DNA of 51,591 nucleotides from Gammaproteobacteria bacterium REDSEA-S15_B12. GTDB taxonomy: Bacteria; Pseudomonadota; Gammaproteobacteria; Arenicellales; UBA868. The position numbers were made by a program, and so were the translations under genes. Position 1 is the first letter of the stretch, and the number at the start of each line of letters is the position of its first letter. Below the pieces are notes generated by a model. It made no database searches and was not told where the DNA came from. It was given only the letters and a program-made list of their open reading frames with translations. Below, piece by piece: positions 14,236 through 51,591 of this stretch. The stretch spans positions 1 to 51,591 of the forward strand of contig LUSG01000048.1 of the NCBI GenBank assembly GCA_001629395.1, read 5' to 3'.

Positions 14236-14430
14236 AGGTTCCTCACACGGAAAATCGACAGAGCGACTGAAATGACAGAGCACCACACTCGCTGCGCCAC
14301 TGGCGGCGTACGAATCATGCCCCGAACGACGCCGGAGTATAACAAATTCAGTCTAAATGACGGGGCTCGGGTGACAACTCAATCGACTTAGCTGGTACTT
14401 GTAATAGATAGTAGGATACTGAACACAGCG

Positions 14431-34307: not shown

Positions 34308-35156
34308 CTACACTTTCCGGGCGACAAAACGAATTCCACCAAGCTTGCCCGCAGTGAAATAGCGCACCACCAGATCGTAGAAGTCGTCCATACTGGCAAA
34401 CACGGCTTCACCGTGCACATCGATGTGCCTTGATTTTTGTTCGCGGAAAGCGGCCATCCGCTCACGGGTAAACGCGGTCCATTCATCTGACATCTCCTGA
34501 CAGCTGACCAATTCAAATCCAGCCCTTTCGAGATCCCGGCAGTAACTTTCATAATCAGGCAGGTAATTAGCGAAAAGTTCCGTGGCCAGTTCAGACCGTT
34601 CACTGTCCGTAAATTGCACACGGGCGTAGAGATCCTCAGCATGGAGATAGCCACCTTGATCCAGGAGGCCATAACAACGTTTCAGCAGCACATCTCGCTC
34701 GGGTATGTGGTAGAGGGCAAGCCAGCTGACAATAACATCGAAGTGCTGCCCGACCCAGTTGTAGGTCAAAAAATCACCACAGGTATGGGTCACTTTCTCT
34801 GTCAATCCACAGCGAGCAGTGAGGTTTGAGGCAAGTTGGTTCTGGTCGCTCTGGAGTTCCAGCGCCGTGACCTGTGCACCAACCGTTGCGGCAATATGAC
34901 GGGCCGGACCGCCCAGCCCCGATCCAATCTCGAGGACCGAGCTGGAGGCACTAACACCGGTAGCCCGAACGGCATAATCGACCGCTTCTGTACCGTGATA
35001 ATGCAACTGATCAAATGGAGTCAGTTCATCGACGGACAGCGGCCCCTCATCTTCTTTGCCCATCTGTCGAAGTTCAGTGAGTACCCGATCAACGTGATGG
35101 TAGAGCTTCATGCTCTTGATATCGGCATTGGCCCTGTTTGATTCGCTCATGATCAT
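34308..35156 (-). CDS. Class I SAM-dependent N-methyltransferase (phosphoethanolamine / sarcosine-dimethylglycine N-methyltransferase-like)
   Basis: 282 aa. Motif I 'VLEIGSGLGGPARHIA'. 'LLDQGGYLHAEDLYA' and the C-terminal half resemble PMT/SDMT-type enzymes. The ATG directly abuts the stop of the upstream M24 gene. Confidence 0.7.
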   Translation of the reverse strand: MIMSESNRANADIKSMKLYHHVDRVLTELRQMGKEDEGPLSVDELTPFDQLHYHGTEAVDYAVRATGVSASSSVLEIGSGLGGPARHIAATVGAQVTALELQSDQNQLASNLTARCGLTEKVTHTCGDFLTYNWVGQHFDVIVSWLALYHIPERDVLLKRCYGLLDQGGYLHAEDLYARVQFTDSERSELATELFANYLPDYESYCRDLERAGFELVSCQEMSDEWTAFTRERMAAFREQKSRHIDVHGEAVFASMDDFYDLVVRYFTAGKLGGIRFVARKV

Positions 35157-36329
35157 TCAATCCACAATGTGCAGCTCGCGGGGGAAATGGGTCAGACACT
35201 TACACCCCGTCGACGTAATGTGTACGGTCTCGCTCATCTCCATTCCCCAACCGTCCAGCCACATCCCCAACATGACATGGAGCACGGCATCTTGCGGGAT
35301 GGTTGTCTGCTCATCAGCACGTAAACTGATTGTGCGTTCGCCCCAGTCTGGAGGATATCCGACACCGATCGAATAACCGATGCGGCTGGGTTTTTCCAAC
35401 CCGTAAAGATCCAGCACGTCCTGCCAGGCCCGGTGCACTGTACCGGCTGTTACACCCGCCTTCAGTACACCCAGCACCGCATCAAGCCCCTCGTTCACAG
35501 CTGACAGCGTCTGCGTCAACTTAAGCGGAGGCTTACCAAGGTGTACTGTTCTGGCGAGCCCGGCGTTGTATCTTTTGCGTGTACCGCCGATCTCAAATGC
35601 AACAGTCTGATCTTTTGCAAAGCATTCGTCGGTCCATAGCGGATGCGCTGTCGTTGCGCCTTCTCCAGCCAGAATAAGTGGACAGATCGCCGTCTGATCA
35701 CCACCAAAATCCTCGGTACCTCTAATCTGGGCGGCCATAATCTCTGCCGCAAGATCACATTGTCGTCCACCGGGCTTAACCAGATCCCAAGCTGTTTGCA
35801 TGGCGTGTCCGGCAATTGCCGCGGCCTGTGCCAGTATGTCGACCTCCACCTGGCTTTTAACCGTACGTATCCAGTTCACCAATCGGTCAGCATCGGACCA
35901 CCGGGCGTCGGGCAATCCTGACTGCAATCCCGAAAGTGCTCGTGGTGAAAAAAAGTAGCTGTCGCTTTCGTAACCGATGTGCTTATCCCCCAGGCCCACA
36001 TCATGTAGCCACGAGGCCATGAATTCAGATGGATGGGTATCATCGCGCTGCACCAGCGCTTCCGGATAAGGGACAACGCTGCGTACATCCAGATGCGTGG
36101 TCAAAGCCACTGCGCCCGCATCCATTTCCCGGCCGATCCAAACGGGTGGACCATCGGGGACCACGCACATCACCTGGGGGACATAAAATGACCAGGCGTC
36201 AAATCCGGTCAACCAGTTCATATTCGCCGGATCTCCGATGATCAAAACGTCTAGCTGACGCTCGGCCATGGCGGCCCGTACGGATGTCAGCCGACGGTTG
36301 TATTCGTCCGGGTGGAATGGGGCGGGCAT
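35157..36329 (-). CDS. M24-family hydrolase, creatinase / ectoine hydrolase (DoeA)-like
   Basis: 390 aa. 'DPANMNWLTGFDAWSFYVPQ', 'LVNWIRTVKSQVEV', 'IGYSIGVGYPPDWGERTISLR' are close to the DoeA/creatinase pattern. ATG at 36329 is preceded by 'GGAGGAG' and forms TGATG with the allH-like stop. Confidence 0.75.
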   Translation of the reverse strand: MPAPFHPDEYNRRLTSVRAAMAERQLDVLIIGDPANMNWLTGFDAWSFYVPQVMCVVPDGPPVWIGREMDAGAVALTTHLDVRSVVPYPEALVQRDDTHPSEFMASWLHDVGLGDKHIGYESDSYFFSPRALSGLQSGLPDARWSDADRLVNWIRTVKSQVEVDILAQAAAIAGHAMQTAWDLVKPGGRQCDLAAEIMAAQIRGTEDFGGDQTAICPLILAGEGATTAHPLWTDECFAKDQTVAFEIGGTRKRYNAGLARTVHLGKPPLKLTQTLSAVNEGLDAVLGVLKAGVTAGTVHRAWQDVLDLYGLEKPSRIGYSIGVGYPPDWGERTISLRADEQTTIPQDAVLHVMLGMWLDGWGMEMSETVHITSTGCKCLTHFPRELHIVD

Positions 36330-37345
36330 CAGTTGCTCCTCCATGGGTTTTTATGCAGCCCGGCAGGCTGAACAAGACAGGCGCGCAACACGACGCAGGC
36401 CCCCGCCAAGGCATCCCAGCCAGAGGAACTGCCTATTCGTTCAATGTGGTGCACTCGAGTGGGAATCATCTCTACGTTGCCTTCGATTACTGAGTTGATC
36501 GCCAGGTGCAATGTCTCAAGCCCCTGACCGGCACTCGCAGCGACCAGATGCGTGCGACTGATCGGGCCGGTCCTCGTCAACAGGTGCGGAGATAAGTCCG
36601 TATAAAGTAACGCGGCAATATCCTGACGATGGACTAGCGAAAGGGCAATAAGAACACCCCCGAGAAAGTCATCGCCGGAGGGCGTGAGCCCGGGGCCCAG
36701 ACCGATCAACTGTTGGGCCGATTCCGGCACACCCTCTACACAACGCTTGTCAGCCAGATGACTAAGCAACCATCTTTCGAGCTCGAAAACAGGAAGTGCG
36801 CAAACATGCGCTTCTCTGGTATCTGATAATTCAGCACCATGGCCGTATAAAAACACACCCAGTCCCTGCCTCGGGACCCGCCCCCTGCTGATTGCATTGA
36901 GCGCATCAAGACCACGCATCAGCGACTCGTTTGTCCAGCACGGAACCAGCGGTGGTGACCAGATTTTGGCCGGCGTCACTATGATAAGAGGTCGATTGCC
37001 AAGATGCACAGCACCCGCACAAACCCGCACAGGCTGATCGACTGCGAGATCGGCGAATACGCCCGAGTATGGTGTGGGCTCAAGTGATAGGTTGACCGGC
37101 CCGTTACCAACCGTGGCATCACCGATACAGATCCACTGACTGCCAAGATCAACGTAGACACTCCGATCGAACACGGCAGCAATCCGTCCGGATACCGACT
37201 GACTGATTTCACGGACAGCAACAGCGCCGATGCTTTGGGCTCTCAACACAGGGCCGAGCACTGATCGCTGTTCTGTGGTCAACCAAGGAAAAGCAGTCCT
37301 TGTATCTGAGTATTGGGATTCGCTGAGTTTCAATTTCTGTTCCAA
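36329..37345 (-). CDS. allH: DUF2877 protein (YlbF/AllH-like, oxamate carbamoyltransferase subunit family)
   Basis: 338 aa. 'LIGLGPGLTPSGDDFLGGVLIAL' is the DUF2877 signature as I recall it. It lies immediately after the FdrA homolog, as in E. coli fdrA-ylbE-ylbF. The symbol is by homology only. Confidence 0.65.
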   Translation of the reverse strand: MEQKLKLSESQYSDTRTAFPWLTTEQRSVLGPVLRAQSIGAVAVREISQSVSGRIAAVFDRSVYVDLGSQWICIGDATVGNGPVNLSLEPTPYSGVFADLAVDQPVRVCAGAVHLGNRPLIIVTPAKIWSPPLVPCWTNESLMRGLDALNAISRGRVPRQGLGVFLYGHGAELSDTREAHVCALPVFELERWLLSHLADKRCVEGVPESAQQLIGLGPGLTPSGDDFLGGVLIALSLVHRQDIAALLYTDLSPHLLTRTGPISRTHLVAASAGQGLETLHLAINSVIEGNVEMIPTRVHHIERIGSSSGWDALAGACVVLRACLVQPAGLHKNPWRSN

Positions 37346-37348
37346 GTC

Positions 37349-38830
37349 TTAGCCGACATTTAAACAAGCCAGCGCCAGCTCTGCAGCATCCGCATTGCTG
37401 GGCGCAACCACAACACCCGCCCGCTCCAATACACTGACCTGTCTTGCCCGGACCTGCGGATCTTCGTCTGTACCCGTGACAGATGCAATAACGACCGAAC
37501 CGGAACAGCCGTGGCGATCTAACAGCCCGGCAAGATGGCCAGCTGGATCGGCATGGGCACCAAAACCTATGACCACATCCAACAACACCACGCCTACATC
37601 AGGGTCTGACAGCGCCGCACAGACAGGCTCATCACGGACAGCCGGGTCAATCATCGGGTGTGGCCGCCCACGGGTAAACCGGTCGTCGCCCAAATCAATC
37701 ATGATGTGGTTTGCGCGCTCTGACGTGAACAAGCCTGCCCCGGGTACTGGCGCATTCGATAAAACAGGCTGTCCGTGCGAAAGAAAGACGACCTGTGCTT
37801 CTGCAGCGAGCGTACCGCCGCTATAAAGCCCCCTAACGTAGCTGCCTGCCACCGGTGCTCGCTGGACAGCCGGCAGCGCTTCCAGTCCTTTGCTGTTTGT
37901 TACTGCGGTCGCCGCTGCATCTTTTAAAGTGGTCGCGAGCTTTGCATTGTCGGGTAACGCCAGGTTGTCACTACCAACCAGGCAGACGGTGTAGCTTTTG
38001 GAACTCCTGCGAATGAATTCAGTGATCTGGTCTACAACACTAGGAGCAGGCGGCTTGGAGATGAGCACAATGTGTTGGGTTGCAACATCTCTTTCCAGCC
38101 AGTCAAGCACGGTCAAGGTGCTGATAGCGCCAACCGCTTCGGTCAGATCTCGTCCTCCAACACCTATTGCGTGCGAGATACCTTCACCGGCGTGGGCAAT
38201 CAGGCAGGATACCTCCTGCATCCCTGTGCCTGAAGCACCCACGATTGCAATATCACCGCGCGGCACAACATTGGCAAAAGCCAGCGGCACCCCGTCGATA
38301 ATCGCCGTTCCGCAGTCAGGGCCCATCACAACAAGTCCCAGATCGCGGGCTTCGCGTTTGAGAGAGATTTCTTCGGCCAGAGCCACATTGTCACTGAAGA
38401 TCATGACATTGAGACCGGCCCTGAGCGCTTTACGTGCTTCTGCCCCGGCGAAGTCACCGGGCACCGAAATCAAAGCGAGATTCGCGTCCGGCAGCTGGCG
38501 ACAGGCCGAGCGCAAGGTAAGCGGACGGAGTTCTCGCGGGGTGCTGTTCTGTTGCGCGGGGCGTTCCATCAATTCGGCTGCCCGCCGCAGTGTCGAATCA
38601 GCTATGGCCCGATCCTGTGCGCGCACCGCGACCAGCAGGTCACCGGGGCCGGCCCTAGTGTCCTCTTCCAGAAGGCCTGCGTCAGAAAGAATGTCCCAAT
38701 TGGCTGGAGTCGCCATCATCAGGGCCGCATCTTCTACACCCTGAATCGCTGTCAATTCCCGTGATATCTGCATCAGCACAACTGAGTCGAGAAAAACCCC
38801 GGCGCGTACTGTGTTGACCGTGACACTCAT
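37349..38830 (-). CDS. allF: FdrA-family protein (AllF-like; succinyl-CoA-synthetase-alpha-like folds)
   Basis: 493 aa. 'GVFLDSVVLMQISREL', 'LALISVPGDFA', 'VMIFSDNV', 'VMGPDCGTAIIDG', 'IVGASGTGMQE', 'GRPHPMIDP' are collinear with E. coli FdrA. It is about 60 aa shorter at the C-terminus. Confidence 0.8.
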   Translation of the reverse strand: MSVTVNTVRAGVFLDSVVLMQISRELTAIQGVEDAALMMATPANWDILSDAGLLEEDTRAGPGDLLVAVRAQDRAIADSTLRRAAELMERPAQQNSTPRELRPLTLRSACRQLPDANLALISVPGDFAGAEARKALRAGLNVMIFSDNVALAEEISLKREARDLGLVVMGPDCGTAIIDGVPLAFANVVPRGDIAIVGASGTGMQEVSCLIAHAGEGISHAIGVGGRDLTEAVGAISTLTVLDWLERDVATQHIVLISKPPAPSVVDQITEFIRRSSKSYTVCLVGSDNLALPDNAKLATTLKDAAATAVTNSKGLEALPAVQRAPVAGSYVRGLYSGGTLAAEAQVVFLSHGQPVLSNAPVPGAGLFTSERANHIMIDLGDDRFTRGRPHPMIDPAVRDEPVCAALSDPDVGVVLLDVVIGFGAHADPAGHLAGLLDRHGCSGSVVIASVTGTDEDPQVRARQVSVLERAGVVVAPSNADAAELALACLNVG

Positions 38831-40098
38831 GAAATCCCCAGCCTTTCTCCAAGCGCTCGAAGCGCTTTTTCAAAGCACGCCATCGGTGCTTTGACCACAC
38901 CGGCACCGACCTGCCCGATGCCGGGTTCTCGATGAGCGATCCCGGTATTGATCGTTGGTACGATCCCGGTCTCAACCACCAGTCGGATATCAATACCTGT
39001 GGGTACGCCTTGATAATTCTCACTCACGATCGTCCACTCGGGATGTTCGCCCAGCGTGATCTCTCTCATTCTGGCGGTAATGCCGGCCGCCTCGACAACA
39101 GATCCGGCGCCCACAAATCCGGCAACCGCGGGCGCTGCAGCCATTGCAAACCCACCCAGTCCGATCGTCTCAACAATGGTTGAGTCCCCCATATCCGGGT
39201 TGGCATCGGCTGCGTTGAATCCTGGGAAGTAAAGTCCTGCCGGCATCTCGACCGGCGCCGTAAACCATTCGTCGCCCAGTCCACTGATACAAATTCCGAA
39301 ATCAGTGCCGTTTCGCGTCATCGCAGTGACCACAGTAGAGTGTTCAATATTACGAACCGGGTCCATGATGGACTTGCCCATGGCCATGGCGATGTTGAGG
39401 AAAAATTGATCGTTGCTGCCCATAAATGCCAGCATTTCAGACAGATCACCGTGGTCTGCCACTACCGATGCCAGAGCAGGTGCCAGTTCGCGCACGAGCA
39501 AGCTTGAACAGGCCACATTGCGCTGGTGCATTTCATCGCCCATCGTCAGCCCGCGGGCAACCAGTGGCCTCAGTGGAATACCCCCACAGCACTGCAGCGC
39601 GCTGCCCAGAGCCGGGCCCAGCGAATCACGAATCCAGGCCAGTCTGTCCCGTACCGCCTCGTCATTACCCCCGAACCGCATCACTTTGCCCAAGCCCTCG
39701 TTGACGGTGCAATAGGCACGGTTGCCCGTTGCGCGGTTCTCGACCACCAGCAAGGGTTGGCTGCAGGTTGTCAGTCCGGTCATCGGACCTACGGCAGAAA
39801 AGTGATGGTTTGGATGAAACTCGAAGCACCCTTTTGACGCCTGAACGCCGGCTTCATCAAGATCGCGAGCCCAGCCTTCGAATACCGCCACCCCTGCGAC
39901 AGCACCGCGCATCGGACCGCACATCCTGTCCCACTCGATGGGTGGGCCGGCGTGCAAAATCGTGTGCTCTTTCAATTCCGGGATGAGCTCCTTGGCCGGC
40001 AGCACATCGATCAGTACCGGGTCACCCTGTAACAGAATCTCCAGCGCCTTTGAATTGGCCCACCGAATCGCAGGGGCGAGCGCCGCAGTGTCCACCAT
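38827..40098 (-). CDS. allG: DUF1116 protein (YlbE/AllG-like, oxamate carbamoyltransferase subunit family)
   Basis: 423 aa from 'MVDTAALAPAIRWANSKALE'. 'LHAGPPIEWDRMCGPMRGA', 'VVENRATGNRAYCTVNEGLGKVMRFG', 'TMGDEMHQRNVA', 'INTGIAHREPGIGQVGAG' match the YlbE pattern. The ATG forms TAATG with the upstream small ORF and the stop forms ATGA with allF. Confidence 0.8.
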   Translation of the reverse strand: MVDTAALAPAIRWANSKALEILLQGDPVLIDVLPAKELIPELKEHTILHAGPPIEWDRMCGPMRGAVAGVAVFEGWARDLDEAGVQASKGCFEFHPNHHFSAVGPMTGLTTCSQPLLVVENRATGNRAYCTVNEGLGKVMRFGGNDEAVRDRLAWIRDSLGPALGSALQCCGGIPLRPLVARGLTMGDEMHQRNVACSSLLVRELAPALASVVADHGDLSEMLAFMGSNDQFFLNIAMAMGKSIMDPVRNIEHSTVVTAMTRNGTDFGICISGLGDEWFTAPVEMPAGLYFPGFNAADANPDMGDSTIVETIGLGGFAMAAAPAVAGFVGAGSVVEAAGITARMREITLGEHPEWTIVSENYQGVPTGIDIRLVVETGIVPTINTGIAHREPGIGQVGAGVVKAPMACFEKALRALGERLGIS

Positions 40099-40316
40099 TA
40101 ATCTGCCAGCATTGAGAGCAAGCGTGCCAGATCTTCGTCCCCACCCGCCGGGGGGCGCCAATCAACGTGAACAACGTCGACATCCTGAGCATCCAGGTCT
40201 GTTGCAAAAACGGCAAGCCCCAGGTTGATGACCCGGGGGCGCGACTGCAGCAGTTCAGCACATACCCGACCGATGGCCGGTGAGTCGTTCTGGTCAGACA
40301 CCACTGTAGACCTCAT
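40098..40316 (-). CDS. Small (about 72 aa) protein translationally coupled to the DUF1116 gene; resembles the C-terminal extension of long FdrA proteins
   Basis: 'RVINLGLAVFATDLDAQDVDVVHVDWRPPAGGDEDLARLLSMLAD'. The stop TAA overlaps the allG-like ATG. The start is uncertain: ATG 40316 or GTG 40304/40301, each overlapping the aminotransferase stop. Confidence 0.55.
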   Translation of the reverse strand: MRSTVVSDQNDSPAIGRVCAELLQSRPRVINLGLAVFATDLDAQDVDVVHVDWRPPAGGDEDLARLLSMLAD

Positions 40317-41550
40317 AAGCCGCATCGACAGCCGCCCCGGGAGTGGCCACATAGCCGTTTCGCCGCAGTACAGTTTCCAGTGCGCTTAAACACCGCAGAA
40401 CATTGGTTTTACGACAGCCGTAACCCATCGTGCCGATTCGCCAGATCTTGCCATGCAGTGGACCAAATGATGTTCCTATCTCGATACCAAAATCGTCCAG
40501 TAACGCGGCACGAGCGGTATCGCCGTTCTCGATCGACTCGGGTATGTAGACACCGGTCACATTGGTCATTCGATGCTCGGCATCACCGAAGAGTTCAAGC
40601 CCCATCGCAACCAACCCCGCTCGCAGCGCTTGCGAAGTCAGTCTATGGCGCTCGAAACCGGCTTCCAATCCTTCCCCGAGAACGACTCGAGCACATTCCC
40701 GCGCAGCGTACAGCATAGAAGTCGACTCGGTGTGATGATTCAGGCGCAAAGGACTCCAGTAATCCATCAGCATGGCAAGGTCGAGGTAGTTGGATTGGAT
40801 AATCGCACCTTCAGCGTCTACGCTTTCCGCGCTTCGTATACCGGCCTCGACATGCTTGCGGGCGTTGATCCGATCCACAGCGTGTTCACTCAAAGTAACG
40901 GGTGATGTGCCAGGTGGTCCCGACATACATTTCTGCAGTCCCGACGACACCGCGTCCAGGCACCAGTCGTCAGTTTCCACCGGGCTACCGCCGAGTGTCG
41001 CGGTGGTGTCGGCATAAACCAGAATGCCAGCCTCACGACAGAAGCGTCCGACATCCCCCAGCGGTTGCAGCATCGTCGTTGACGTATCACCATGGACCAT
41101 CGCAACCAGCTTGGGTTGATGCGCACGAATCGCGTCAGTGACCTGCTCGGGGTCGAATACTGTACCCCACTCAGTTTCTATGTTGACCAGATCACCACCG
41201 GCCCGCCGTGCGATCTCGGTCAGCAGATGTCCAAAGCGGCCAAAAATCGGTACCAGCACTTTGTCCCCGGGCGAGATCAGCGAAGTAAGACAAGCCTCGA
41301 TCCCTGAACGGGCTGTCCCGTTAACCAGCAGGGTCCACTGATTTTCAGTACGAAACACCCGTCGGTACAGCGCCATCACCTGATTCATATAGGTGGTGAA
41401 CTGTGGATCGAATTGCCCAAGCATGGCCCTGGACATTGCCTGTAGAACCCGGGGATAGACATCGACGGGACCGGGTCCCATCAGCAGTCTTGGTTCTGGA
41501 TCAAGTTCTTCAAACAGGGTGCTCGACCCCGGATGTGTGCTGTCACTCAT
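40294..41550 (-). CDS. Class-V PLP aminotransferase (alanine/serine-glyoxylate, PucG-like ureidoglycine-glyoxylate aminotransferase family)
   Basis: 418 aa. 'LLMGPGPVDV', PLP-lysine context 'AVSSGLQKCMSGPPGTSP', 'WRIGTMG'. Specificity is inferred from the purine-catabolic context only. Confidence 0.8.
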   Translation of the reverse strand: MSDSTHPGSSTLFEELDPEPRLLMGPGPVDVYPRVLQAMSRAMLGQFDPQFTTYMNQVMALYRRVFRTENQWTLLVNGTARSGIEACLTSLISPGDKVLVPIFGRFGHLLTEIARRAGGDLVNIETEWGTVFDPEQVTDAIRAHQPKLVAMVHGDTSTTMLQPLGDVGRFCREAGILVYADTTATLGGSPVETDDWCLDAVSSGLQKCMSGPPGTSPVTLSEHAVDRINARKHVEAGIRSAESVDAEGAIIQSNYLDLAMLMDYWSPLRLNHHTESTSMLYAARECARVVLGEGLEAGFERHRLTSQALRAGLVAMGLELFGDAEHRMTNVTGVYIPESIENGDTARAALLDDFGIEIGTSFGPLHGKIWRIGTMGYGCRKTNVLRCLSALETVLRRNGYVATPGAAVDAAYEVYSGV

Positions 41551-41576
41551 GATTGTTTTCCAGATCTTTTAGGTTG

Positions 41577-42551
41577 TCAGTCGTCAGCAACGACGTGGGT
41601 GCCGGCGTCTCCTATCAATGCGGGCAGTGCTTGCTCGAGGTGCGCAATGATCGCACGTCTGCCGCCCCGCTCAATAAATCGTATTGCGGCTTCGACCTTG
41701 GGTCCCATGCTACCCGCAGCAAAGTGCCCATCCTCCTGGTGCTGTCTCATCTGTGAGACCGAACATTGGGCAATCTCCTTTTCATTCGGCCCGCCGAAAT
41801 CCAGCGCCACCCGCGGTACGCCGGTCAGGATCAACATGTGTTCGATACCCAGTACATTGGCCATGTGCTGTGAAGTCAGATCTTTATCGATCACCGCTTC
41901 TATCCCCCGGCGTATGCCATGGGCATCTCTAACAACGGGTATACCACCGCCACCGCCGGCAATCACAATCGTACCCCGACTGGCCAGTCCATCGATCAGC
42001 GAGATGTCACAGATGTGTTTGGGTTCAGGTGAGGGCACGACCTGGCGCCATCCACGGCCGGCATCTTCGTGCATAACCCAACCGAGCTCAGATTCAAGTT
42101 CCTTCGCCTCCTGCTCGGAGAAAAAATATCCCACGGGCTTGCTCGGCTGCCCGAATGCAGGATCTGCCGGATCAACCTCAACCTGTGTGACCAAGCCGAT
42201 AGCGTGTCTTGGGTTACCCGCGCCACGCAGCGCGTTCTCGAAAGCCTGCATCAGCAGATAAGCAGTTACCCCCTGTGTATTGGCAACACAGATATCAACC
42301 GACATGGGCGTAACCCGATGTCTTGCCAGAGCCTGACGCATCATTGTTTTGCCGACACCTGGACCATTGCCGTGCGTAACGATTAGTTCACGTTCCAGTT
42401 CTAAAATGGGTAACAGTGTCTGGGCTGCACGGGCGGCTGTATCCATCTGTTCTTCAGGCGTGCCTTTAATGCCCTGAGGATGAATGGCATTTCCCCCCAC
42501 TGCGATCAACAACCGGGGAGGGAGTTCCCGTGAGTGGGCAGGTGAAGTCAT
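41577..42551 (-). CDS. arcC: Carbamate kinase
   Basis: 324 aa. 'LLIAVGGNA', 'VTHGNGPGVG', 'IAGGGGGIPVV', 'EAVIDKDL', 'FAAGSMGPKVEAA'. Confidence 0.92.
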   Translation of the reverse strand: MTSPAHSRELPPRLLIAVGGNAIHPQGIKGTPEEQMDTAARAAQTLLPILELERELIVTHGNGPGVGKTMMRQALARHRVTPMSVDICVANTQGVTAYLLMQAFENALRGAGNPRHAIGLVTQVEVDPADPAFGQPSKPVGYFFSEQEAKELESELGWVMHEDAGRGWRQVVPSPEPKHICDISLIDGLASRGTIVIAGGGGGIPVVRDAHGIRRGIEAVIDKDLTSQHMANVLGIEHMLILTGVPRVALDFGGPNEKEIAQCSVSQMRQHQEDGHFAAGSMGPKVEAAIRFIERGGRRAIIAHLEQALPALIGDAGTHVVADD

Positions 42552-42557
42552 TGCGGT

Positions 42558-43574
42558 TTAACCGTCTGCATCGGTGCTCATAAACGTGGCTACTACATCT
42601 TTTCCAGCCGACAATGCCAATGAAAGCAGCAGTGCAGACTTGTGCGGGTTTAGGTGGCGCGAAGCAACGATGTGGTGTTCCTCTGTCAGGGTCATGGTTT
42701 CAGGCAACACCACGACGTCAGCGACACGGGACGATACAACAATGGTTATGCCGTCATCCGCCAGCCGGTTAATCTCCGGTACCAGCCCGTCGGGGATCTC
42801 TCCGCATCCGAAACCAGCTATCACCAGGCCTCTGCGCTCTGTCCAGTCACGGGACAACAGGTCCGCGTGTGAATTGCCAGCGGCAACATAATGGATATCT
42901 ACAGCCGGCAACAGCACGTCGTTGGACAGCGCACCAGCAAACGCGCCAGCCAGCGCTGCTTTAGTCGAGTCAGAAAAAAAGAAGGTGCGGCCGGAATAGA
43001 CCCGCCCCAGCGGTCTGGCGGGCGATGAAGTGAACGCATTTGTGGCGATGGAATGGCGCTTGACAACGTGCAGTGCGGACAGAATCTCACCGTTCATCAC
43101 CACCATGACACCCCGGCCACTGGCATTTGCCGACGCACACACCTGCACCGCATGGAAAAGATTGGCAGGTCCATCCGGACTCAGTGCTGTTGCGGGGCGC
43201 ATGCTGCCGGTCAACACGATTGGTTTATCGGTGCTGAGTGTAAGATGCAGAAACAGCGCTGCTTCTTCAAGTGTATCGGTACCATGGGTAACCACTACAC
43301 CGGTCACGTCTTTTCTGCTGGCCTCCTCGCTGATCTTCCTGGCGAGCAACTGCCACTGCTCAGGACCCATATCCTTGGAATTCAAAGAAAACAGGTTCTG
43401 CCCACTGATCTGTGCGACGTTCGCCAGATCGGGAATAACCTCCAGCAAATCAGCGACCGACAATTGACCGGCACTGTAAGCGAGGTTCGTAGCCGAATCG
43501 GCGCGGCCGGCGATGGTTCCGCCGGTACCGACAATGACGACCTTAGGTTCTGACGGCATTTGCTCAACGCCCAA
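42558..43574 (-). CDS. Asparaginase-family amidohydrolase, cytoplasmic (no signal peptide)
   Basis: 338 aa. 'VVIVGTGGTIAGR' (nucleophile Thr), 'VVTHGTDTLEEAALFL', 'LTGSMRPA'. Alternative start at 43559. Confidence 0.85.
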   Translation of the reverse strand: MGVEQMPSEPKVVIVGTGGTIAGRADSATNLAYSAGQLSVADLLEVIPDLANVAQISGQNLFSLNSKDMGPEQWQLLARKISEEASRKDVTGVVVTHGTDTLEEAALFLHLTLSTDKPIVLTGSMRPATALSPDGPANLFHAVQVCASANASGRGVMVVMNGEILSALHVVKRHSIATNAFTSSPARPLGRVYSGRTFFFSDSTKAALAGAFAGALSNDVLLPAVDIHYVAAGNSHADLLSRDWTERRGLVIAGFGCGEIPDGLVPEINRLADDGITIVVSSRVADVVVLPETMTLTEEHHIVASRHLNPHKSALLLSLALSAGKDVVATFMSTDADG

Positions 43575-43583
43575 AGGTTAGGA

Positions 43584-44615
43584 TCAGTTTAATCCAACGA
43601 TGTTGGCGATCAATGACATACGCAGTGGTACTGAGAAACCGATCTGCTTGAAATACAGTTCGTGTGCCGTCTGGTCGATTCCAAAGTCGAATTCTCCTTC
43701 ATTCCGTGGCAGCGAGTGCATAACACCCACAGTCTTTCCACTTTGCTCACGGATTTTTTCCAGCCCGTCAACGGTGAAATAGTATTCCTCCATCTTTTTC
43801 ATGAAGTCATCCCGCCCTGGATCACCTTTCTTGACCGAACACCCTGGCAGATACAACAGATCTATCCCTTCGTCAGCAATCAGATCCTCCTGTTGCCGAA
43901 TCGTCAGGTCATTGTGTTCCACATACGTCGCATTCATCCCGTCGAGTTTTTCACGGATGACATCCGGTGTACGCAGGCCGGTCGTACCGGAATACACAAT
44001 CCTGGCACCCATCCGAGCCAGGCCCAGGGCAAAGGACTGCCCGGAACGCGCGCGCGACAGATCGGGCGTGGCGATCATCACACTCATGGTCGAAAAATCA
44101 CCGCCCAACACCCGCCACGCGGTGTACATGTCGAGCAGACCCTGTGTGGGATGCGTCACATTGCCGTAACCCCCACTGATAATCGGAATTGTGTCACCCG
44201 CCAGAAGTTCTATATCTGCCAGCACTCTTTCATCATCGGGGTGCCTGAGTACAAGAACATCGGCATATTGCGAGATCACCCGGATCGAATCGTAAAGGGA
44301 CTCATTCTTTGCTGCAGACGAACTGACCAGCGGGTTGGACTCCGTCAGTACGTTGCCACCAAGACGGTACATGGCCGTCTCATGGCTGAACCGGGTTCGG
44401 GTGCTGGGCTGGAAAAACAAAGTACACAAGATCCTGTGCCGAAGCAGTTCCAGACCGCTTCGCCAGTAAGGCTCGAACATTTCTGCTGTTAGAAAAACGT
44501 TGTCGAGTTCATCTGAAGACAGGTCGTCGATAAAAGTCAGGTGGCGACCTTTGATCGCGGTTTTTTCTACCTGGGCATAGATGTCTCTCGGGCCAAAGTC
44601 CGGCGTCAATACCAT
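43584..44615 (-). CDS. ATCase/OTCase-superfamily carbamoyltransferase of non-canonical specificity (candidate ureidoglycine/allantoate carbamoyltransferase)
   Basis: 343 aa from the ATG at 44615, behind 'GAGGAAG'. Carbamoyl-phosphate site intact: 'QPSTRTRFSHE', 'VLRHP', 'THPTQGLLD', 'MHSLPR'. The ATCase 'TRVQKER' aspartate-binding segment is replaced by 'PGCSVKK'. Confidence 0.85.
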   Translation of the reverse strand: MVLTPDFGPRDIYAQVEKTAIKGRHLTFIDDLSSDELDNVFLTAEMFEPYWRSGLELLRHRILCTLFFQPSTRTRFSHETAMYRLGGNVLTESNPLVSSSAAKNESLYDSIRVISQYADVLVLRHPDDERVLADIELLAGDTIPIISGGYGNVTHPTQGLLDMYTAWRVLGGDFSTMSVMIATPDLSRARSGQSFALGLARMGARIVYSGTTGLRTPDVIREKLDGMNATYVEHNDLTIRQQEDLIADEGIDLLYLPGCSVKKGDPGRDDFMKKMEEYYFTVDGLEKIREQSGKTVGVMHSLPRNEGEFDFGIDQTAHELYFKQIGFSVPLRMSLIANIVGLN

Positions 44616-44760
44616 AGTTGTGCTTCCTCGCTGATTCAAAGTTACTGTGCAGATCGCGGTGTTAACTGCCGTTGGATCCCGGGCCAGGATCCATTGCTAT
44701 GGCAGAACCCCGGACAGGGTGGAACATAAACTGTGTTCAGAACTGCTCTGAAAATCCAGC

Positions 44761-44801
44761 TGCAGTACTGCACATTTTAAGCGAACTCTCCCAGCAGTCA
44801 C
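44761..44801 (-). promoter_or_regulatory. Putative sigma70 promoter with an abutting palindromic operator, upstream of the carbamoyltransferase operon
   Basis: On the minus strand: -35-like GTGACT (44801-44796), a 16-nt spacer, -10 TAAAAT (44779-44774), then one base and a perfect 12-bp palindrome TGCAGTACTGCA (44772-44761). Prediction by eye only. Confidence 0.3.
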
Positions 44802-44846
44802 CACTTGACCTGTTAGACAGGCCTCTGCTGTGCTCAGCATCTGCTG

Positions 44847-45383
44847 TCAGTTGTAGCATTCGATCTCCTGCAGCCTTAGCCAGGCTATACGATGCACCTG
44901 TCTGAGCGCTTCAGCAAATTCATCGTCACGGTCACTGTTGATTCGCTCGTGGAAATTCTCCAGCACCTGCTGTCTATTACGACCGCGTACCGCAAGAATA
45001 AAAGGAAAACCAAATTGCTTGGTGTAAGACTGATTGAGGGACTGAAACTCCGCGTATTCAGCTTTTGTACACCGGTCCAGTCCCGCACCGGCTTGTTCAG
45101 ATCGGGACTCGGTTGTCAGGACATCACCCACGCCCAGTTTGCCGGCAAGATCGGGGTGTGCGCGCAGCAGCCTGAGCTGAAGTTCCGGACCTGCCTCCTC
45201 GACAATTGCGACCAGGGTCCGGCACAGACCTTCAGGCGAATCTTCGGTACTCGCGAGACCTTGATCCCAGGCCTGCTCAACAATCCAGGGGGATTTCTCA
45301 TAGATATGGCCGAACACTGCGATGAATTCCTCGCGATCCATTTCACTGGGCTTGCGGTGGTTGTGCAATCGATCATCCGTCAC
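44847..45383 (-). CDS. uraD: 2-oxo-4-hydroxy-4-carboxy-5-ureidoimidazoline (OHCU) decarboxylase
   Basis: 'EFIAVFGHIYEKSPWIVEQAW', 'LLRAHPDLAGK', 'FGFPFILAVRG'. A GTG start at 45383 lies 2 nt after the puuE stop; ATG 45341 is an alternative. The longer ORF up to 45530 overlaps puuE and is rejected. Confidence 0.85.
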   Translation of the reverse strand: MTDDRLHNHRKPSEMDREEFIAVFGHIYEKSPWIVEQAWDQGLASTEDSPEGLCRTLVAIVEEAGPELQLRLLRAHPDLAGKLGVGDVLTTESRSEQAGAGLDRCTKAEYAEFQSLNQSYTKQFGFPFILAVRGRNRQQVLENFHERINSDRDDEFAEALRQVHRIAWLRLQEIECYN

Positions 45384-45385
45384 TG

Positions 45386-46261
45386 TTAATCCTGTATAAC
45401 CGGGTGGTGTTGCCGCCAGTGCCGGGCGATATCGACCCGTCGACAGAACCACACACCCTCGTGGCGCTGGGCGTGATCGATAAACCGTTCCAGCGCTCGA
45501 ATACGGCCAGGTCTGCCGACCAGACGGCAATGCAGACCGATCGACATCATCCGCGGTATGCGCGAACCTTCCTCGTACAAGTTAAACCCCTGTGGCGTTG
45601 CAAACCGCATGTCATTAGCATCCAGCGTATAGGGTACAACCAGGTGCTGATGACCATCGACTGTTGTCCAAAAGGGCAAGTCATCGTTGTAGTCATCAGC
45701 GTCATAAAGGAAACCGCCCTCCTCAACCACCAGGCGACGGGTGTTCTCGCTGGTCCGGCCCGTATACCAGCCCAGTGGGCGTTCACCCGTCAGTTGCTCA
45801 ATGAGCTCGATCGCTTTGTGAAGATGTTCTCTTTCCGTCGCCTCCGGTACGTCCCGGTAGTCAATCCAGCGGTAGCCGTGTGAGCAGATCTCGTGTCCCG
45901 CACCAACCACAGCATCGGCTACCGCCGGGTTCCGCGCAAGCGCCATCGCCACGGCGAAAACTGTGATTGGAATCTGTTTTTGTTCGAAAAGGTTCAACAG
46001 ACGCCAGATCCCGACGCGTGAGCCGTATTCATAGATTGATTCCATACTCATGTGCCGCTGGCCAGGCCATGGTGCAGCACCGACGATCTCTGACAAAAAT
46101 GCTTCTGACGCCGAATCACCGTGTAAAATACTGTTTTCACTACCTTCTTCATAGTTGACCACAAACTGAAGTGCCAGCCTGGCTTCATCGGGCCAGTTTG
46201 CAGCCGGCACAGACCGCCCGTAGCCAACCAGGTCACGTGGGTAGACATCCTTTGGGGCCAT
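45386..46261 (-). CDS. puuE: Allantoinase PuuE (polysaccharide deacetylase-type, metal-independent)
   Basis: 291 aa. 'YPRDLVGYGR', 'QFVVNYEEGSENSILHGDSASEAFLSE', 'HGYRWIDY', 'GLHCRLVGRPGR', 'RRVDIARHW'. It appears to lack about 15 aa after 'ATPQGFN' relative to the PuuE I remember. Confidence 0.85.
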   Translation of the reverse strand: MAPKDVYPRDLVGYGRSVPAANWPDEARLALQFVVNYEEGSENSILHGDSASEAFLSEIVGAAPWPGQRHMSMESIYEYGSRVGIWRLLNLFEQKQIPITVFAVAMALARNPAVADAVVGAGHEICSHGYRWIDYRDVPEATEREHLHKAIELIEQLTGERPLGWYTGRTSENTRRLVVEEGGFLYDADDYNDDLPFWTTVDGHQHLVVPYTLDANDMRFATPQGFNLYEEGSRIPRMMSIGLHCRLVGRPGRIRALERFIDHAQRHEGVWFCRRVDIARHWRQHHPVIQD

Positions 46262-46454
46262 CGCTTTTACCTGTCTGTATTAGACCCACCGCATTCTGAT
46301 GGGATGTTTTGCCTACTGGATTTCGTGAATTCCAAGTCAAACATGTTTAAAGTTGCGGAAAAGACACGGCTGGTAGCCAGGTTTCCAGTTGCCTTGCCGT
46401 GCATATCGGCGCTTCTTCGCAACCGATAGGACTGACTGTAGCCGGAGCAACCGA

Positions 46455-46805
46455 ATGGGACAACTGACAACTCACGTGCTGGACACAGCCCGCGGAAAAC
46501 CCGCGGACAATATGAACTGGGCCCTGTATTGTGCCGACACCGAACGCACCGTGCTTGCCACAGGACGCACCAATGCAGACGGGCGGAATGCCGGACCGAT
46601 CTTAGCGGGTGCAGATTTCGTGTCAGGCATATACGAACTCGTGTTCTATGTCGCGGAGTATTTTCGATACGGCGGCATTGAACTGCCGGACCCAGCCTTC
46701 CTGGATGAGGTGGTTATTCGGTTTGGCATTGCTGAATCGCACAGCCACTATCACGTGCCTCTACTCATTTCGCCCTATGGGTACAGCACTTACCGGGGGA
46801 GTTGA
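46455..46805 (+). CDS. uraH: 5-hydroxyisourate hydrolase (transthyretin-like)
   Basis: 116 aa. N-terminal 'LTTHVLDTARGKPA', 'HYHVPLLISPYGYSTYRGS' with the diagnostic C-terminal YRGS. Confidence 0.92.
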   Translation: MGQLTTHVLDTARGKPADNMNWALYCADTERTVLATGRTNADGRNAGPILAGADFVSGIYELVFYVAEYFRYGGIELPDPAFLDEVVIRFGIAESHSHYHVPLLISPYGYSTYRGS

Positions 46806-46833
46806 ACCCTCACCCGGTCGGACAGCCAGAAAC

Positions 46834-48295
46834 ATGCAACCCAGTAGAGATAAGGTCCGCTTTGTTCTCGGCAGTATGCCGCTTGAAATCAGTCTGGATA
46901 AAGTTAAAAAAAACCGGCACCAAGGAAGGCTGTGCCGAAGGCGATTGCGGGGCTTGTACCGTGCTGATCGCTGAACTGTACGACAACAGCCTCAAGTACA
47001 CGGCAGCCAACGCATGCATCCTGCTACTGGGCATGGTGGATGGGAAACAAGTGCTGACGGTTGAACACCTGGCGTCAGACACCCTTCACCCGGCCCAACA
47101 AGCCATGATTGACCATCACGGCTCGCAGTGCGGCTTCTGTACGCCGGGCTTCGTGATGTCGATCGCCGCATTGCAGCTCGATGGGCATCACGGGGATTCA
47201 ATCCAAACACCTGGTCGGGATCAGATCGACCAGCACCTCGCCGGTAACCTGTGTCGGTGTACGGGCTATGGGCCGATTATCGATGCGGCCCGCCAGGCCT
47301 GTACCCAGCCGTTACCGGACTACTGGCCGCACCAGCAGACCGCCGTTCAGTCCATACTTGGCCAATGGCAACAACAGGATGAAACACTGCATGTCGAGTG
47401 TGAGTCGGGCCTGTTTGCAGCACCCCGCACAGAAGCACAACTCGCCACATACCTTTCCGATCAACACTCACCCCCGACCCTGCTCGCAGGTGCCACTGAT
47501 ATAGGTCTTTGGATCACGAAACAGGGGCGGCAGCTCACTACGCTGCTCTATCTGGGACAGATATCAAGCCTTAAAACCGTCAATCGGCAAGAAGACGAGC
47601 TTGAGATCGGTGCTGCGGTTTCACTACAGCATGCAGCGCCCGAATTGACCCGCCTTTCACCGGATCTTGGGCTCCTGCTGCGCCGGTTTGGCGCACGTCA
47701 GGTCCGCAGCCAGGGTACCATTGGCGGCAACATTGCGAACGGATCGCCCATCGGTGATCTACCCCCCGCACTGATCGCGCTGGGCGCAACACTGCGAATC
47801 AGATGCGCTAATGGTCAACGAGAGATTCCGCTGGAGGATTTTTTCATCGACTATGGACAACAGGATCTCGCAGACAACGAATATGTGGCGTCGGTCGTGC
47901 TCCCGGCACGCCCACAGCCGCACTTTTGGTGCTCGAAGATCGCCAAACGTTTCGACCAGGATATCAGCGCTGTTCTTGGCGCATTTTCCCTGACACTGGT
48001 CGATGGTTTAGTTCACAACGCCCGCTTTTGTTTTGGTGGAATGGCCAGCACGCCGCGCCGGGCTCGTCGTTGCGAAGCCGCTGTGGAAGGACGCCGCCTC
48101 GATGAGGACACACTGGCCGATGCACAAAATGCGCTGCTACAGGATTTTGATCCTATTGCCGATCTGCGCGCGAGTGCCCGCTACCGCCGGACGGTCGCCG
48201 CGAACCTGCTCGACAAGTATTTTCGGTTTCTGAACGTGACCGACGTGCCATCTGTTTATGAGTTTTCTTCGCCACAGGCCTTCACCCATGTCTGA
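46834..48295 (+). CDS. xdhA: Xanthine dehydrogenase small subunit XdhA ([2Fe-2S] + FAD), interrupted as given by a +1 frame change at an A8 run
   Basis: ATG 46834 gives 'MQPSRDKVRFVLGSMPLEISLDKVKK', a typical XdhA N-terminus, in frame 1. From the A8 run at 46906-46913 the homologous sequence continues in frame 2: 'KKTGTKEGCAEGDCGACTV...HGSQCGFCTPGF...CRCTGY...' through the FAD domain to 48295. Frame 1 stops at 46974. Confidence 0.8.
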
Positions 48296-50591: not shown

Positions 50592-50597
50592 CTGCCA

Positions 50598-51591
50598 ATG
50601 AATAGCGTCAATCTTTCATCGATGAGTGCGTGTGGACCGGTTGACTGGATCGGCGCGGCGCGGCGACTGATCACAGAACACCGTCGTGCAGTACTGATCA
50701 TGGTCACCGCGAATAAGGGGTCGACACCCCGGGACAGTGGCACCTGGATGCTGGTCTCAGACGATGGACAGTCCGGCACCCTGGGTGGTGGTGAACTTGA
50801 ACGACTGGCCGAAGAAGCGGCCCGTGCCATGCTGGCTGGACAGGGTAACTGGCAGCGCTGTTCACTGCATTGTGCACTGGGCCCGGACCTCAGGCAGTGT
50901 TGTGGTGGTCACGTCACACTGATGCTCGAGCCCCTGGATCTGTCGGCAACTGACTGGCTGGCGCAGGCCGCTGAATCGGTACGGATAGGTGACAACCAAT
51001 ACAGCGTACTTTTCCAGCCAAATGAGCCTGCTGCCGCACCGCGGATCATCACAAACGATGGGGCTATGTCGGGTTTAACCGGCGTACATTTTCAGCCGAT
51101 CACTGACACCCGTATGAGTCTGTTTCTTTTTGGTGCCGGTCATGTCGGTCTAGCCATCGCCGCCATATCGGCACAGCTGCCACTTCGCCTGACTGTTTTC
51201 GATGGCAGAGCCAAGCAACGAGCGCTCGTCCCGAACGCGGACAATATTCAAGTCCTGGGTATGGACTCGGCCGAACAAGCCGCGGCTGGGGTGCCGTCAG
51301 GTTCGGCCGCGCTCGTTATGACACACAGTCATGAACTGGATTACACCTTGTGTCATGCACTGCTCACACAAAATAGTGCCGGTTTTGTCGGCCTGATCGG
51401 CAGCCGATCCAAAGCGGCCCGATTCCGCAGCCGCTTAAGAAAAGACAAGGTTCCGCAGAAGTTTCTGGCCCGGCTGACCAGCCCCATCGGCAGTTCCGGC
51501 CCAACTGGAAAAGAACCCGGTGTGATTGCCCTGGCTGCCCTGTCTGAAGTACTCACACTGAACATGAAGTCGGCTGAGCCCAACCTGGCGC
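50598..51591 (+). CDS. xdhC: Xanthine dehydrogenase accessory/maturation factor XdhC (3' end beyond the window)
   Basis: Not in the supplied ORF track because no stop lies within the window. My manual translation from ATG 50598 stays open to base 51591: 'VLIMVTANKGSTPRDSGTWMLV..GTLGGGELE', 'LFLFGAGHVGLAIA', 'GLIGSRSKAARF'. It begins 6 nt after the xdhB stop. Confidence 0.85.
   Translation, partial: MNSVNLSSMSACGPVDWIGAARRLITEHRRAVLIMVTANKGSTPRDSGTWMLVSDDGQSGTLGGGELERLAEEAARAMLAGQGNWQRCSLHCALGPDLRQCCGGHVTLMLEPLDLSATDWLAQAAESVRIGDNQYSVLFQPNEPAAAPRIITNDGAMSGLTGVHFQPITDTRMSLFLFGAGHVGLAIAAISAQLPLRLTVFDGRAKQRALVPNADNIQVLGMDSAEQAAAGVPSGSAALVMTHSHELDYTLCHALLTQNSAGFVGLIGSRSKAARFRSRLRKDKVPQKFLARLTSPIGSSGPTGKEPGVIALAALSEVLTLNMKSAEPNLA

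Follow-up and report, generated by a model that had tools for sequence, protein, structure and literature searches.

Purines are an important currency of organic nitrogen in both ocean and gut, and in the textbook bacterial routes allantoate is opened by hydrolysis (AllC) or with release of urea. The described systems closest to the one reported here are the following. In Rubrobacter xylanophilus, the UGTCase Rxyl_2847 has been shown in vitro to convert allantoate to ureidoglycine and carbamoyl phosphate in a reaction that depends on phosphate or arsenate, and its gene adjoins those for a carbamate kinase (Rxyl_2848) and an asparaginase (Rxyl_2849) (Barba et al. 2013, PMC4016543). In the oxamate branch of Escherichia coli (AllD, AllFGH and AllK), oxalurate is converted to oxamate and carbamoyl phosphate, from which carbamate kinase makes ATP; the oxamic transcarbamylase activity of AllFGH was measured in the reverse direction (Kim et al. 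2024, PMC11326118). In the Klebsiella HPX and Bacillus Puc pathways, an allantoate amidohydrolase (HpxK or PucF) is followed by HpxJ or PucG, which leads from ureidoglycine to oxalurate, and the arginine and agmatine deiminase pathways use a catabolic ornithine or putrescine carbamoyltransferase (OTCase or PTCase) with a carbamate kinase. Here we describe an operon from the uncultured marine gammaproteobacterium REDSEA-S15_B12, lying in a 51,591-nucleotide contig (LUSG01000048.1; all of it analysed, and called the window below), which probably encodes a purine-catabolic route that breaks down allantoate with two carbamoyltransferases.

In the proposed route, XdhABC, UraH, UraD and PuuE, encoded next door, would take xanthine to urate, 5-hydroxyisourate, 2-oxo-4-hydroxy-4-carboxy-5-ureidoimidazoline (OHCU) and onwards to allantoate. 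A UGTCase-type enzyme, encoded by the first gene of the operon, would then phosphorolyse one ureido group (allantoate + inorganic phosphate (Pi) -> (S)-ureidoglycine + carbamoyl phosphate), an HpxJ/PucG-type aminotransferase would convert ureidoglycine and glyoxylate to oxalurate and glycine, and AllF (made as two polypeptides), AllG and AllH would phosphorolyse oxalurate (oxalurate + Pi -> oxamate + carbamoyl phosphate). One carbamate kinase would turn both carbamoyl phosphates into ATP, NH3 and CO2, with no urea formed. An asparaginase homologue may act on ureidoglycine to give glyoxylate, CO2 and NH3, and so also furnish the amino acceptor of the aminotransferase. The operon would thus unite three separately described modules, UGTCase, HpxJ/PucG and AllFGH; without any urease, the nitrogen would be regained as ammonia and glycine, and substrate-level phosphorylation would yield up to two ATP for each allantoate, a predicted doubling. 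The identities, order and conservation of the genes are direct observations, and the reactions are a plausible reading of them by comparative genomics alone.

The operon shares with Rubrobacter the adjacent trio of carbamoyltransferase, carbamate kinase and asparaginase, an aspartate carbamoyltransferase (ATCase) fold without the aspartate motif, a urate/allantoin cluster without allantoate amidohydrolase and the same predicted reaction. Its carbamoyltransferase, however, belongs to a different and much larger subclade (HSLP / SRARSGQS), its allantoinase is PuuE rather than of the dihydroorotase (DHOase) type, and it continues into the aminotransferase and AllFGH, whereas the Rubrobacter cluster continues into glyoxylate-to-glycerate genes. 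With E. coli it has in common the AllFGH trio and the carbamate kinase, but the predicted source of its oxalurate is ureidoglycine transamination and not AllC, AllE and AllD; its genes run tail-AllG-AllF-AllH, FdrA (AllF) having its last ~60 residues encoded by a separate upstream open reading frame (ORF); and a second carbamoyltransferase would feed the same kinase. The ureidoglycine-to-oxalurate branch is that of Klebsiella and Bacillus, but allantoate would be opened by phosphorolysis instead of hydrolysis and oxalurate would pass to AllFGH instead of the amidase HpxY; an HpxW-type oxamate amidohydrolase, as in Klebsiella, is not found in the window. The deiminase pathways follow the same energetic logic, phosphorolysing a ureido compound and then making ATP by substrate-level phosphorylation, but here two successive, unrelated carbamoyltransferases would work on one carbon skeleton, with purine-derived substrates. 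These modules are already in the literature: UGTCase with kinase and asparaginase since 2013 (PMC4016543; reviewed in 2015, PMC4581275), the ureidoglycine aminotransferase through the structures 3NNK and 3ISL, and AllFGH with carbamate kinase from 2022-2024 (AllFGH in 2024, PMC11326118). A preliminary description of the window, made from its letters, had held the full combination to be uncharacterised; its first step with the kinase and asparaginase neighbours had been published in 2013, but for the full combination the claim is consistent with our full-text literature searches, which found no paper combining UGTCase with AllFGH or with the aminotransferase. The operon is probably a set of known enzyme types in a combination without earlier description.

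Several lines of evidence support this assignment. First, by its sequence the lead enzyme belongs to the 'pseudo-ATCase' or UGTCase family and not to PyrB. It matches OTCace_N with 131 bits, lies under all ATCase and OTCase equivalog cutoffs (176.9 against 236.95 bits for TIGR00670 and 154.9 against 263 for NF002032) and finds its closest PDB matches in archaeal ATCases, at ~150 bits. The carbamoyl phosphate site is intact (S71-T72-R73-T74-R75, R124 and H155-P156-T157-Q158) and invariant across the family alignment. On the side of the second substrate, R190, the equivalent of R167, is present and the aspartate-binding R229 and Q231 are missing; the RxQxER loop, which reads R-I/V-Q-K-E-R in ATCase-like representatives, is replaced by PGC-S260-V-K-K263, and the HPLP of ATCases by H300-S301-L302-P303. 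Five of these residues (R190, S260, K263, S301 and L302) match R189, S258, K261, T298 and L299 of the Rubrobacter enzyme, the positions proposed to contact its second substrate, with T298 belonging to the motif H(T/S)LP (PMC4581275). A library of 50%-identity representatives holds a few full-length relatives, scoring 224-405 bits; the other full-length representatives, beyond the family, reach no more than ~174 bits, as is generic for ATCases. In a neighbour-joining tree of 68 sequences, with 44 ATCase-like representatives as the comparison set apart from the family, the family clade has a bootstrap of 52/60 and the window's subclade 60/60; one representative initially taken as an outgroup (P0149) is a family member by sequence. 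Clustering with genuine PyrB/ArgF, as the only such gene in the genome, had been named in the preliminary description as grounds for abandoning its hypothesis; the clade came out separate from ATCase-like representatives, and homology and gene context both speak for the idea that an ATCase-fold enzyme phosphorolyses allantoate.

Second, the remaining enzymes of the route match curated families. The class-V aminotransferase aligns over its full length with HpxJ (3NNK, 546.5 bits) and PucG (3ISL, 443.5 bits), the next family, AGXT, reaching 279; it is ~60% identical to HpxJ, as estimated by eye from the full-length alignment, and its pyridoxal-phosphate-lysine motif GLQKC aligns with GMQKC/GTQKC. 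Carbamate kinase exceeds the cutoff of NF009007 (311.9 against 266 bits) and is slightly below that of TIGR00746 (334.5 against 358.25). FdrA, DUF1116 and DUF2877 are, from their profile matches, a predicted oxamate carbamoyltransferase AllF/AllG/AllH with all three subunits encoded together. AllF scores 506.6 bits with NF004760 (cutoff 433), AllG 294 bits with PF06545 (cutoff 27), being equal in length to its counterpart in L001, a related locus of the survey described below, and AllH 69.3 bits with PF11392 (cutoff 25). AllF is split into a core and a tail. The large FdrA spans positions 6-491 of the 555 in NF004760 and the small ORF in front of AllG matches positions 497-554 (E = 1.8e-12), which identifies the small ORF as a C-terminal tail detached from AllF; the tail's core of ~53 amino acids is present in all window-like operons examined, at 45-96% identity. 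The small ORF listed as a gene in its own right in the preliminary description thus exists, but as a split-off piece of FdrA. The same account's readings of the aminotransferase as a ureidoglycine-glyoxylate aminotransferase, of the trio as AllF/G/H and of a single carbamate kinase serving the operon agree with these scores. Its claim of a urea-free route also holds to the extent that the window encodes no urea-releasing enzyme and, as it had noted, nowhere in the 51.6 kb did we find an allantoicase, AllC, cupin ureidoglycine aminohydrolase (AllE), AllD or ureidoglycolate lyase.

Third, the gene order is conserved. Scanning metagenomes with the family-specific motif PDLSRARSGQSF gave 80 loci and exact-protein look-ups gave further ones; the resulting 93 loci (cited as L with a number) were annotated against a reference panel and grouped into 25 clusters at 90% UGTCase identity. 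A scan of a genome collection with generic motifs (FFQPSTRT, YADVLVLRH) returned mostly true ATCases, with family members at 3 of 80 loci. The arrangement of the window (architecture A), UGTCase-asparaginase-(carbamate kinase)-aminotransferase-FdrA tail-AllG-AllF-AllH, is found in 5 of the 25 clusters, whose UGTCases are 100, 89, 86, 79 and 76% identical to the window's. The relatives come from independent contigs of metagenomes or metagenome-assembled genomes (MAGs), with asparaginases 43-59% and AllH proteins 34-40% identical, and because the order recurs in contigs with such diverged asparaginase and AllH sequences it is more than chance, which makes a set of eight genes the conserved core. 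Among named relatives, MAGs of Arenicellales and Acidiferrobacteraceae come closest.

In the other architectures the UGTCase stands in different company. Architecture B, (ureidoglycolate lyase)-cupin-UGTCase-asparaginase-carbamate kinase, occurs for example in the cultured Shumkonia mesophila (L208); architecture C is cupin-UGTCase-carbamate kinase-ureidoglycolate lyase, without asparaginase; and architecture D, from gut and other contigs, is (DcuC-allantoinase)-cupin-UGTCase-carbamate kinase. The slot of the UGTCase is the same, flanked on one side by allantoinase/PuuE or allantoin racemase and on the opposite side by enzymes that consume ureidoglycine, and carbamate kinase accompanies it in nearly all surveyed loci. 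The cupin and the set of aminotransferase and AllFGH are mutually exclusive beside UGTCase, the pattern expected of two alternative fates of ureidoglycine. Two further loci (L140, 1142-8803, and L167, 5181-13757) hold an AllD-like Ldh_2 protein, a fused AllF/AllG, a transporter of the L-lactate-permease family, UGTCase and carbamate kinase, and have a cupin close by. They are a second, independent joining of both carbamoyltransferase systems, in which oxalurate would come via ureidoglycolate instead of by transamination.

UGTCase-type enzymes thus extend beyond Rubrobacter to marine Gammaproteobacteria, Rhodospirillales and human-gut metagenome contigs. Public annotations call the family 'aspartate carbamoyltransferase', and since this is routine, metabolic reconstructions based on allC or allantoicase wrongly score such organisms as purine non-users. 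Human-gut metagenome contigs, Sutterella and Saezia frequently carry members of the UGTCase family with 55-61% identity to the window's enzyme (L006, L009, L091, L101, L110, L124, L130, L149, L152, L162 and others); these loci run cupin-UGTCase-carbamate kinase and also hold an allantoinase and a DcuC-type transporter, the UGTCase being annotated as aspartate carbamoyltransferase or left unnamed, which suggests an ATP-yielding fermentation of allantoin in gut Burkholderiales. In one cupin-type operon, a DUF6986 protein with weak HpcH/malate-synthase TIM-barrel matches follows carbamate kinase (L160, 1-1113, minus strand) and is a candidate for a pathway-linked, glyoxylate-consuming enzyme.

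The asparaginase homologue keeps constant company with UGTCase, not with AllFGH. Wherever its gene neighbourhood was inspected, it lies directly downstream of a UGTCase gene, at 42-59% identity to the window protein, and the same subfamily stands between UGTCase and carbamate kinase in four operons with cupin and lyase (L008, L095, L208 and L209), where neither AllFGH nor the aminotransferase was found within the ~10 kb examined. The type A asparaginases of the 76% lineage group by sequence features with type B homologues. Asparaginase N- and C-terminal domains are matched with 206 and 61 bits, TIGR00520 is matched below its cutoff (292.8 against 314.3 bits), the top PDB match is 3NXK (214 bits) and identity to true asparaginases is ~40%; the catalytic TGGT motif begins at residue 12-15 and leaves no room for a signal peptide. 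In the numbering of E. coli asparaginase II, T12, Y25, S58, T89, D90 and K162 are kept in all 13 operon-linked homologues (the window protein and 12 others), which in addition share an ETMT segment near E283 and carry an acidic residue at either 59 or 248. In E. coli asparaginase II, S58, D90 and the acidic residue bind the alpha-amino-acid amide, and positions 59 and 248 line the alpha-amino pocket for the substrate in known asparaginases. These two positions co-vary, the window lineage having K59 with E248 and the other operon-linked homologues E59 with T248 (one has G59).

Replacing the side-chain CH2 of L-asparagine by NH, with the spatial configuration unchanged, gives its aza-analogue, (S)-ureidoglycine. 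Ureidoglycine is the most likely substrate of the homologue, and this is the weakest inference of the scheme. A more specific possibility, which we put forward tentatively, is that the protein is a formerly unrecognised (S)-ureidoglycine amidohydrolase ('aza-asparaginase') that hydrolyses the terminal amide. If so, the resulting carbamate and gem-diamine would collapse to glyoxylate, CO2 and 3 NH3, and the operon would be self-contained (2 allantoate -> 3 carbamoyl phosphate (3 ATP) + oxamate + glycine + CO2 + 3 NH3), with the glyoxylate for the aminotransferase made in the operon and no urea, urease or external keto acid involved. Hydrolysis of ureidoglycine by the asparaginase would explain its pairing with UGTCase, the Rubrobacter trio and the source of glyoxylate in architecture A, and it accords with the suggestion of Barba et al. 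that the asparaginase works on ureidoglycine (PMC4016543). Strict replacement of the cupin aminohydrolase by the asparaginase was considered and rejected: both co-occur in L008, L095, L208 and L209. The conserved asparaginase partner poses a well-defined, testable question, for which a cultured host exists in Shumkonia mesophila.

Several points weigh against the route as proposed. Both phosphorolyses are thermodynamically uphill, and later steps must pull them. The aminotransferase needs glyoxylate in stoichiometric amounts, for which the window offers no source unless the asparaginase supplies it, and oxamate goes unprocessed in the scheme, by which a quarter of the nitrogen may be lost. Related operons in L165, L145 and L139 have no carbamate kinase at this position. 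A ureidoglycine-acting asparaginase would be redundant where cupin and lyase are present (architecture B), and many UGTCase operons do without one. Finally, Rxyl_2847 is the one UGTCase assayed and comes from a branch more distant than the window's clade, and the motif of the Rubrobacter subgroup is given as HPLA in the text of Table 1 of Barba et al. (PMC4016543) but as H(T/S)LP in the 2015 review (PMC4581275).

The role of the asparaginase homologue is where other explanations fare best. It could be an ordinary cytoplasmic L-asparaginase, or a hydrolytic allantoate or ureidoglycolate amidohydrolase, whose only link to the operon is co-regulation with nitrogen scavenging, the pathway being otherwise as proposed. 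The complete set of canonical catalytic residues at ~40% identity to true asparaginases fits this, as does its dispensability, since cupin-UGTCase-kinase-lyase operons and those of gut type lack it. Against it, all homologues with an examined context sit directly behind UGTCase, which is hard to explain for a housekeeping enzyme, and the protein falls below the curated type-II cutoff (293 against 314); on balance we regard this explanation as unlikely.

Somewhat less likely again is the scheme of the preliminary description, which casts the asparaginase as an oxamate amidohydrolase (oxamate -> oxalate + NH3). Such an enzyme would recover the fourth nitrogen and give the pathway an irreversible final step to pull it forward, and an asparaginase is present in every window-like operon seen. 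However, the residues for binding an alpha-amino acid (S58, D90 and the acidic 59/248) are kept, and oxamate is without an alpha-amino group; the same subfamily also occurs behind UGTCase in the operons with cupin and lyase (L008, L095, L208 and L209), which have no AllFGH nearby and where no oxamate is expected. Precedent for the activity exists in Klebsiella, where an unrelated oxamate amidohydrolase, HpxW, takes part in an HpxJ-using pathway (mentioned in PMC12625717), but the trio of UGTCase, carbamate kinase and asparaginase in Rubrobacter adjoins glyoxylate-utilisation genes (PMC4016543). We do not favour oxamate as the substrate.

The last two genes of the operon encode an M24 hydrolase and a methyltransferase, and a reading in which all ten genes serve one pathway, with M24 for instance acting on oxamate or oxalurate and the methyltransferase on glycine or a by-product, draws on the translationally coupled junctions (TGATG and 0 nt) and on the presence of both genes in the lineage of 89% identity (L001 and L004). 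We consider it improbable. Otherwise identical operons in L207, L157 and L145 lack both genes: in L207 the operon stops at AllH and is followed by a convergent glpK, in L157 an EPSP-synthase-like gene comes after AllH, and in L145 the neighbours are unrelated. The methyltransferase follows M24 only in contigs of the L001 lineage, and the contigs of the window's own cluster reach no further than the M24 gene. The M24 protein is a DoeA paralogue, with DoeA as its best PDB match (6TWK, 323 bits) and scores under the DoeA equivalog cutoffs (400.4 against 613 for TIGR02993; 184 against 575 for NF038259), and homologues 61-63% identical to it lie in ectoine-type contexts, with an AstE/AspA-like neighbour, or in unrelated ones. 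The methyltransferase matches Methyltransf_25/11/12 at ~46-50 bits and, weakly, phosphoethanolamine N-methyltransferases (55 bits). Both genes are probably recent, lineage-specific additions at the 3' end, outside the pathway; the 'ten-gene operon' of the preliminary description, which had counted them as members, stands as ten packed ORFs around a conserved unit of eight. M24 as the missing oxamate or oxalurate amidase was likewise rejected as the main reading, being not conserved with the operon and having its close homologues elsewhere. Downstream of the methyltransferase, after 81 nt and on the same strand, comes a GMC oxidoreductase of choline-dehydrogenase-like type (32586-34226, minus strand), which L001 and L207 do not have there. 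Taken with the DoeA-like M24 protein and the weakly phosphoethanolamine-methyltransferase-like enzyme, it hints at a compatible-solute module and not at purine catabolism.

That the lead enzyme is an anabolic ATCase, or acts on another ureido compound, and that the two-carbamoyltransferase logic is coincidental is very improbable: public 'aspartate carbamoyltransferase' annotations and the archaeal ATCases among its best PDB matches (~150 bits) point that way, but it scores below every ATCase equivalog cutoff, has lost RxQxER, falls in a separate clade and keeps a purine-catabolic neighbourhood with no pyrI or pyrC nearby, and the related contig L007 holds two ordinary OTCace-family genes besides.

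Table 1. Features of the predicted allantoate operon and its surroundings in the window; reactions are predictions.
Feature	Coordinates	Strand	Assignment or basis
Operon as a whole	44615-34308	-	Ten co-directional, tightly packed ORFs (Pfam/NCBIfam family searches)
UGTCase-type 'pseudo-ATCase', 343 aa	43584..44615	-	Predicted allantoate + Pi -> (S)-ureidoglycine + carbamoyl phosphate
Cytoplasmic type-II asparaginase homologue	42558..43574	-	Likely start ATG 43559 (333 aa)
Carbamate kinase, 324 aa	41577..42551	-	Predicted carbamoyl phosphate + ADP -> ATP + NH3 + CO2
(S)-Ureidoglycine-glyoxylate aminotransferase (HpxJ/PucG orthologue), 418 aa	40294..41550	-	Predicted ureidoglycine + glyoxylate -> oxalurate + glycine
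Detached FdrA/AllF C-terminal tail, 84-codon ORF	40098..40352	-	NF004760 match
AllG (DUF1116), predicted oxamate carbamoyltransferase subunit, 423 aa from TAATG-coupled ATG	38827..40098	-	PF06545
AllF (FdrA) without C-terminal tail, 493 aa	37349..38830	-	NF004760
AllH (DUF2877) subunit	36329..37345	-	PF11392
M24 hydrolase, DoeA paralogue, 390 aa	35157..36329	-	PDB 6TWK match; probable lineage-specific addition
Class-I S-adenosylmethionine-dependent methyltransferase, 282 aa	34308..35156	-	Methyltransf_25/11/12; probable lineage-specific addition
Leader, uraD to operon, 231 nt	44616..44846	-	GAGGAAG Shine-Dalgarno; presumed promoter region
uraD (OHCU decarboxylase) and puuE (allantoinase), upstream, co-directional	44847..46261	-	PF09349 158 bits; PF01522 53 bits
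uraH-xdhA-xdhB-xdhC, divergent	46389..51590	+	Transthyretin/HIUase, xanthine dehydrogenase Fe-S/FAD, molybdopterin-binding and XdhC domains

All ten minus-strand ORFs of the preliminary description were recovered at the coordinates it gave (Table 1), Pfam and NCBIfam profile searches returned the families it had named, and its placing of puuE-uraD upstream and uraH-xdhABC opposite is borne out by domain matches. Its list of short or overlapping junctions was reproduced on recomputation, except that the +9 nt between the carbamoyltransferase stop (43584) and the asparaginase holds for the TTG start at 43574 only; from the ATG at 43559, which gives a protein whose length matches its relatives, the gap is +24 nt. 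The next gaps are +6 (asparaginase to carbamate kinase) and +26 (carbamate kinase to aminotransferase). The aminotransferase gene overlaps the small ORF by 59 nt from the longest ATG, or by 8-11 nt from GTG 40301/40304, the start that better fits the conserved core. The small ORF and AllG are joined by TAATG, AllG and AllF by ATGA, AllF and AllH by +3 (with a TTG start), AllH and M24 by TGATG with a GGAGGAG Shine-Dalgarno sequence, and M24 and the methyltransferase by 0 nt.

Between the uraD stop (44847) and the ATG of the carbamoyltransferase (44615) lie the 231 nt counted earlier, with the Shine-Dalgarno sequence ahead of the ATG. This leader is not conserved in relatives, and we therefore propose no regulator site. 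It contains one sigma-70-like match (44801-44774), which is not above chance expectation; scanning 32-47 kb for promoters and terminators turned up no excess of sites over shuffled sequence, and an Rfam search of the window matched no family. An imperfect palindrome in the leader (TGGATCC-N7-GGATCCA, 44673-44693, minus strand) is not kept in L001, L207 or L094. Two of these three relatives carry a terminator-like hairpin (GGAACC...GGTTCC and a T-run) directly after uraD, which suggests that the operon has its own promoter.

The PuuE of the window (45386-46261, minus strand) is missing 15 residues (SGDQFFSYLRDTFDT, after QGFN) that are present in L093 and L166, whose UGTCases are 99-100% identical to the window's, and in all other aligned relatives. 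This gap in a conserved region reflects either an assembly artefact or an in-frame deletion specific to the strain; a real deletion may impair the allantoinase that supplies the operon.

The remaining 28 kb of the window are housekeeping genes (hemA, prfA, citrate synthase, hslUV, the bc1 complex, a leuA-like gene and others). Elsewhere in the window, a peptidase M3 (oligopeptidase) gene at 14388-16276 (minus strand) appears split into two overlapping ORFs, 14969-16276 and 14388-15002, the second of which has no Pfam match, and may be a frameshift or pseudogene. At 28670-30741 (minus strand), genes for a DUF1611 protein and an enolase-superfamily protein (MR/MLE, dipeptide-epimerase-like) overlap by 7 nt and form a conserved-looking pair unrelated to the operon.

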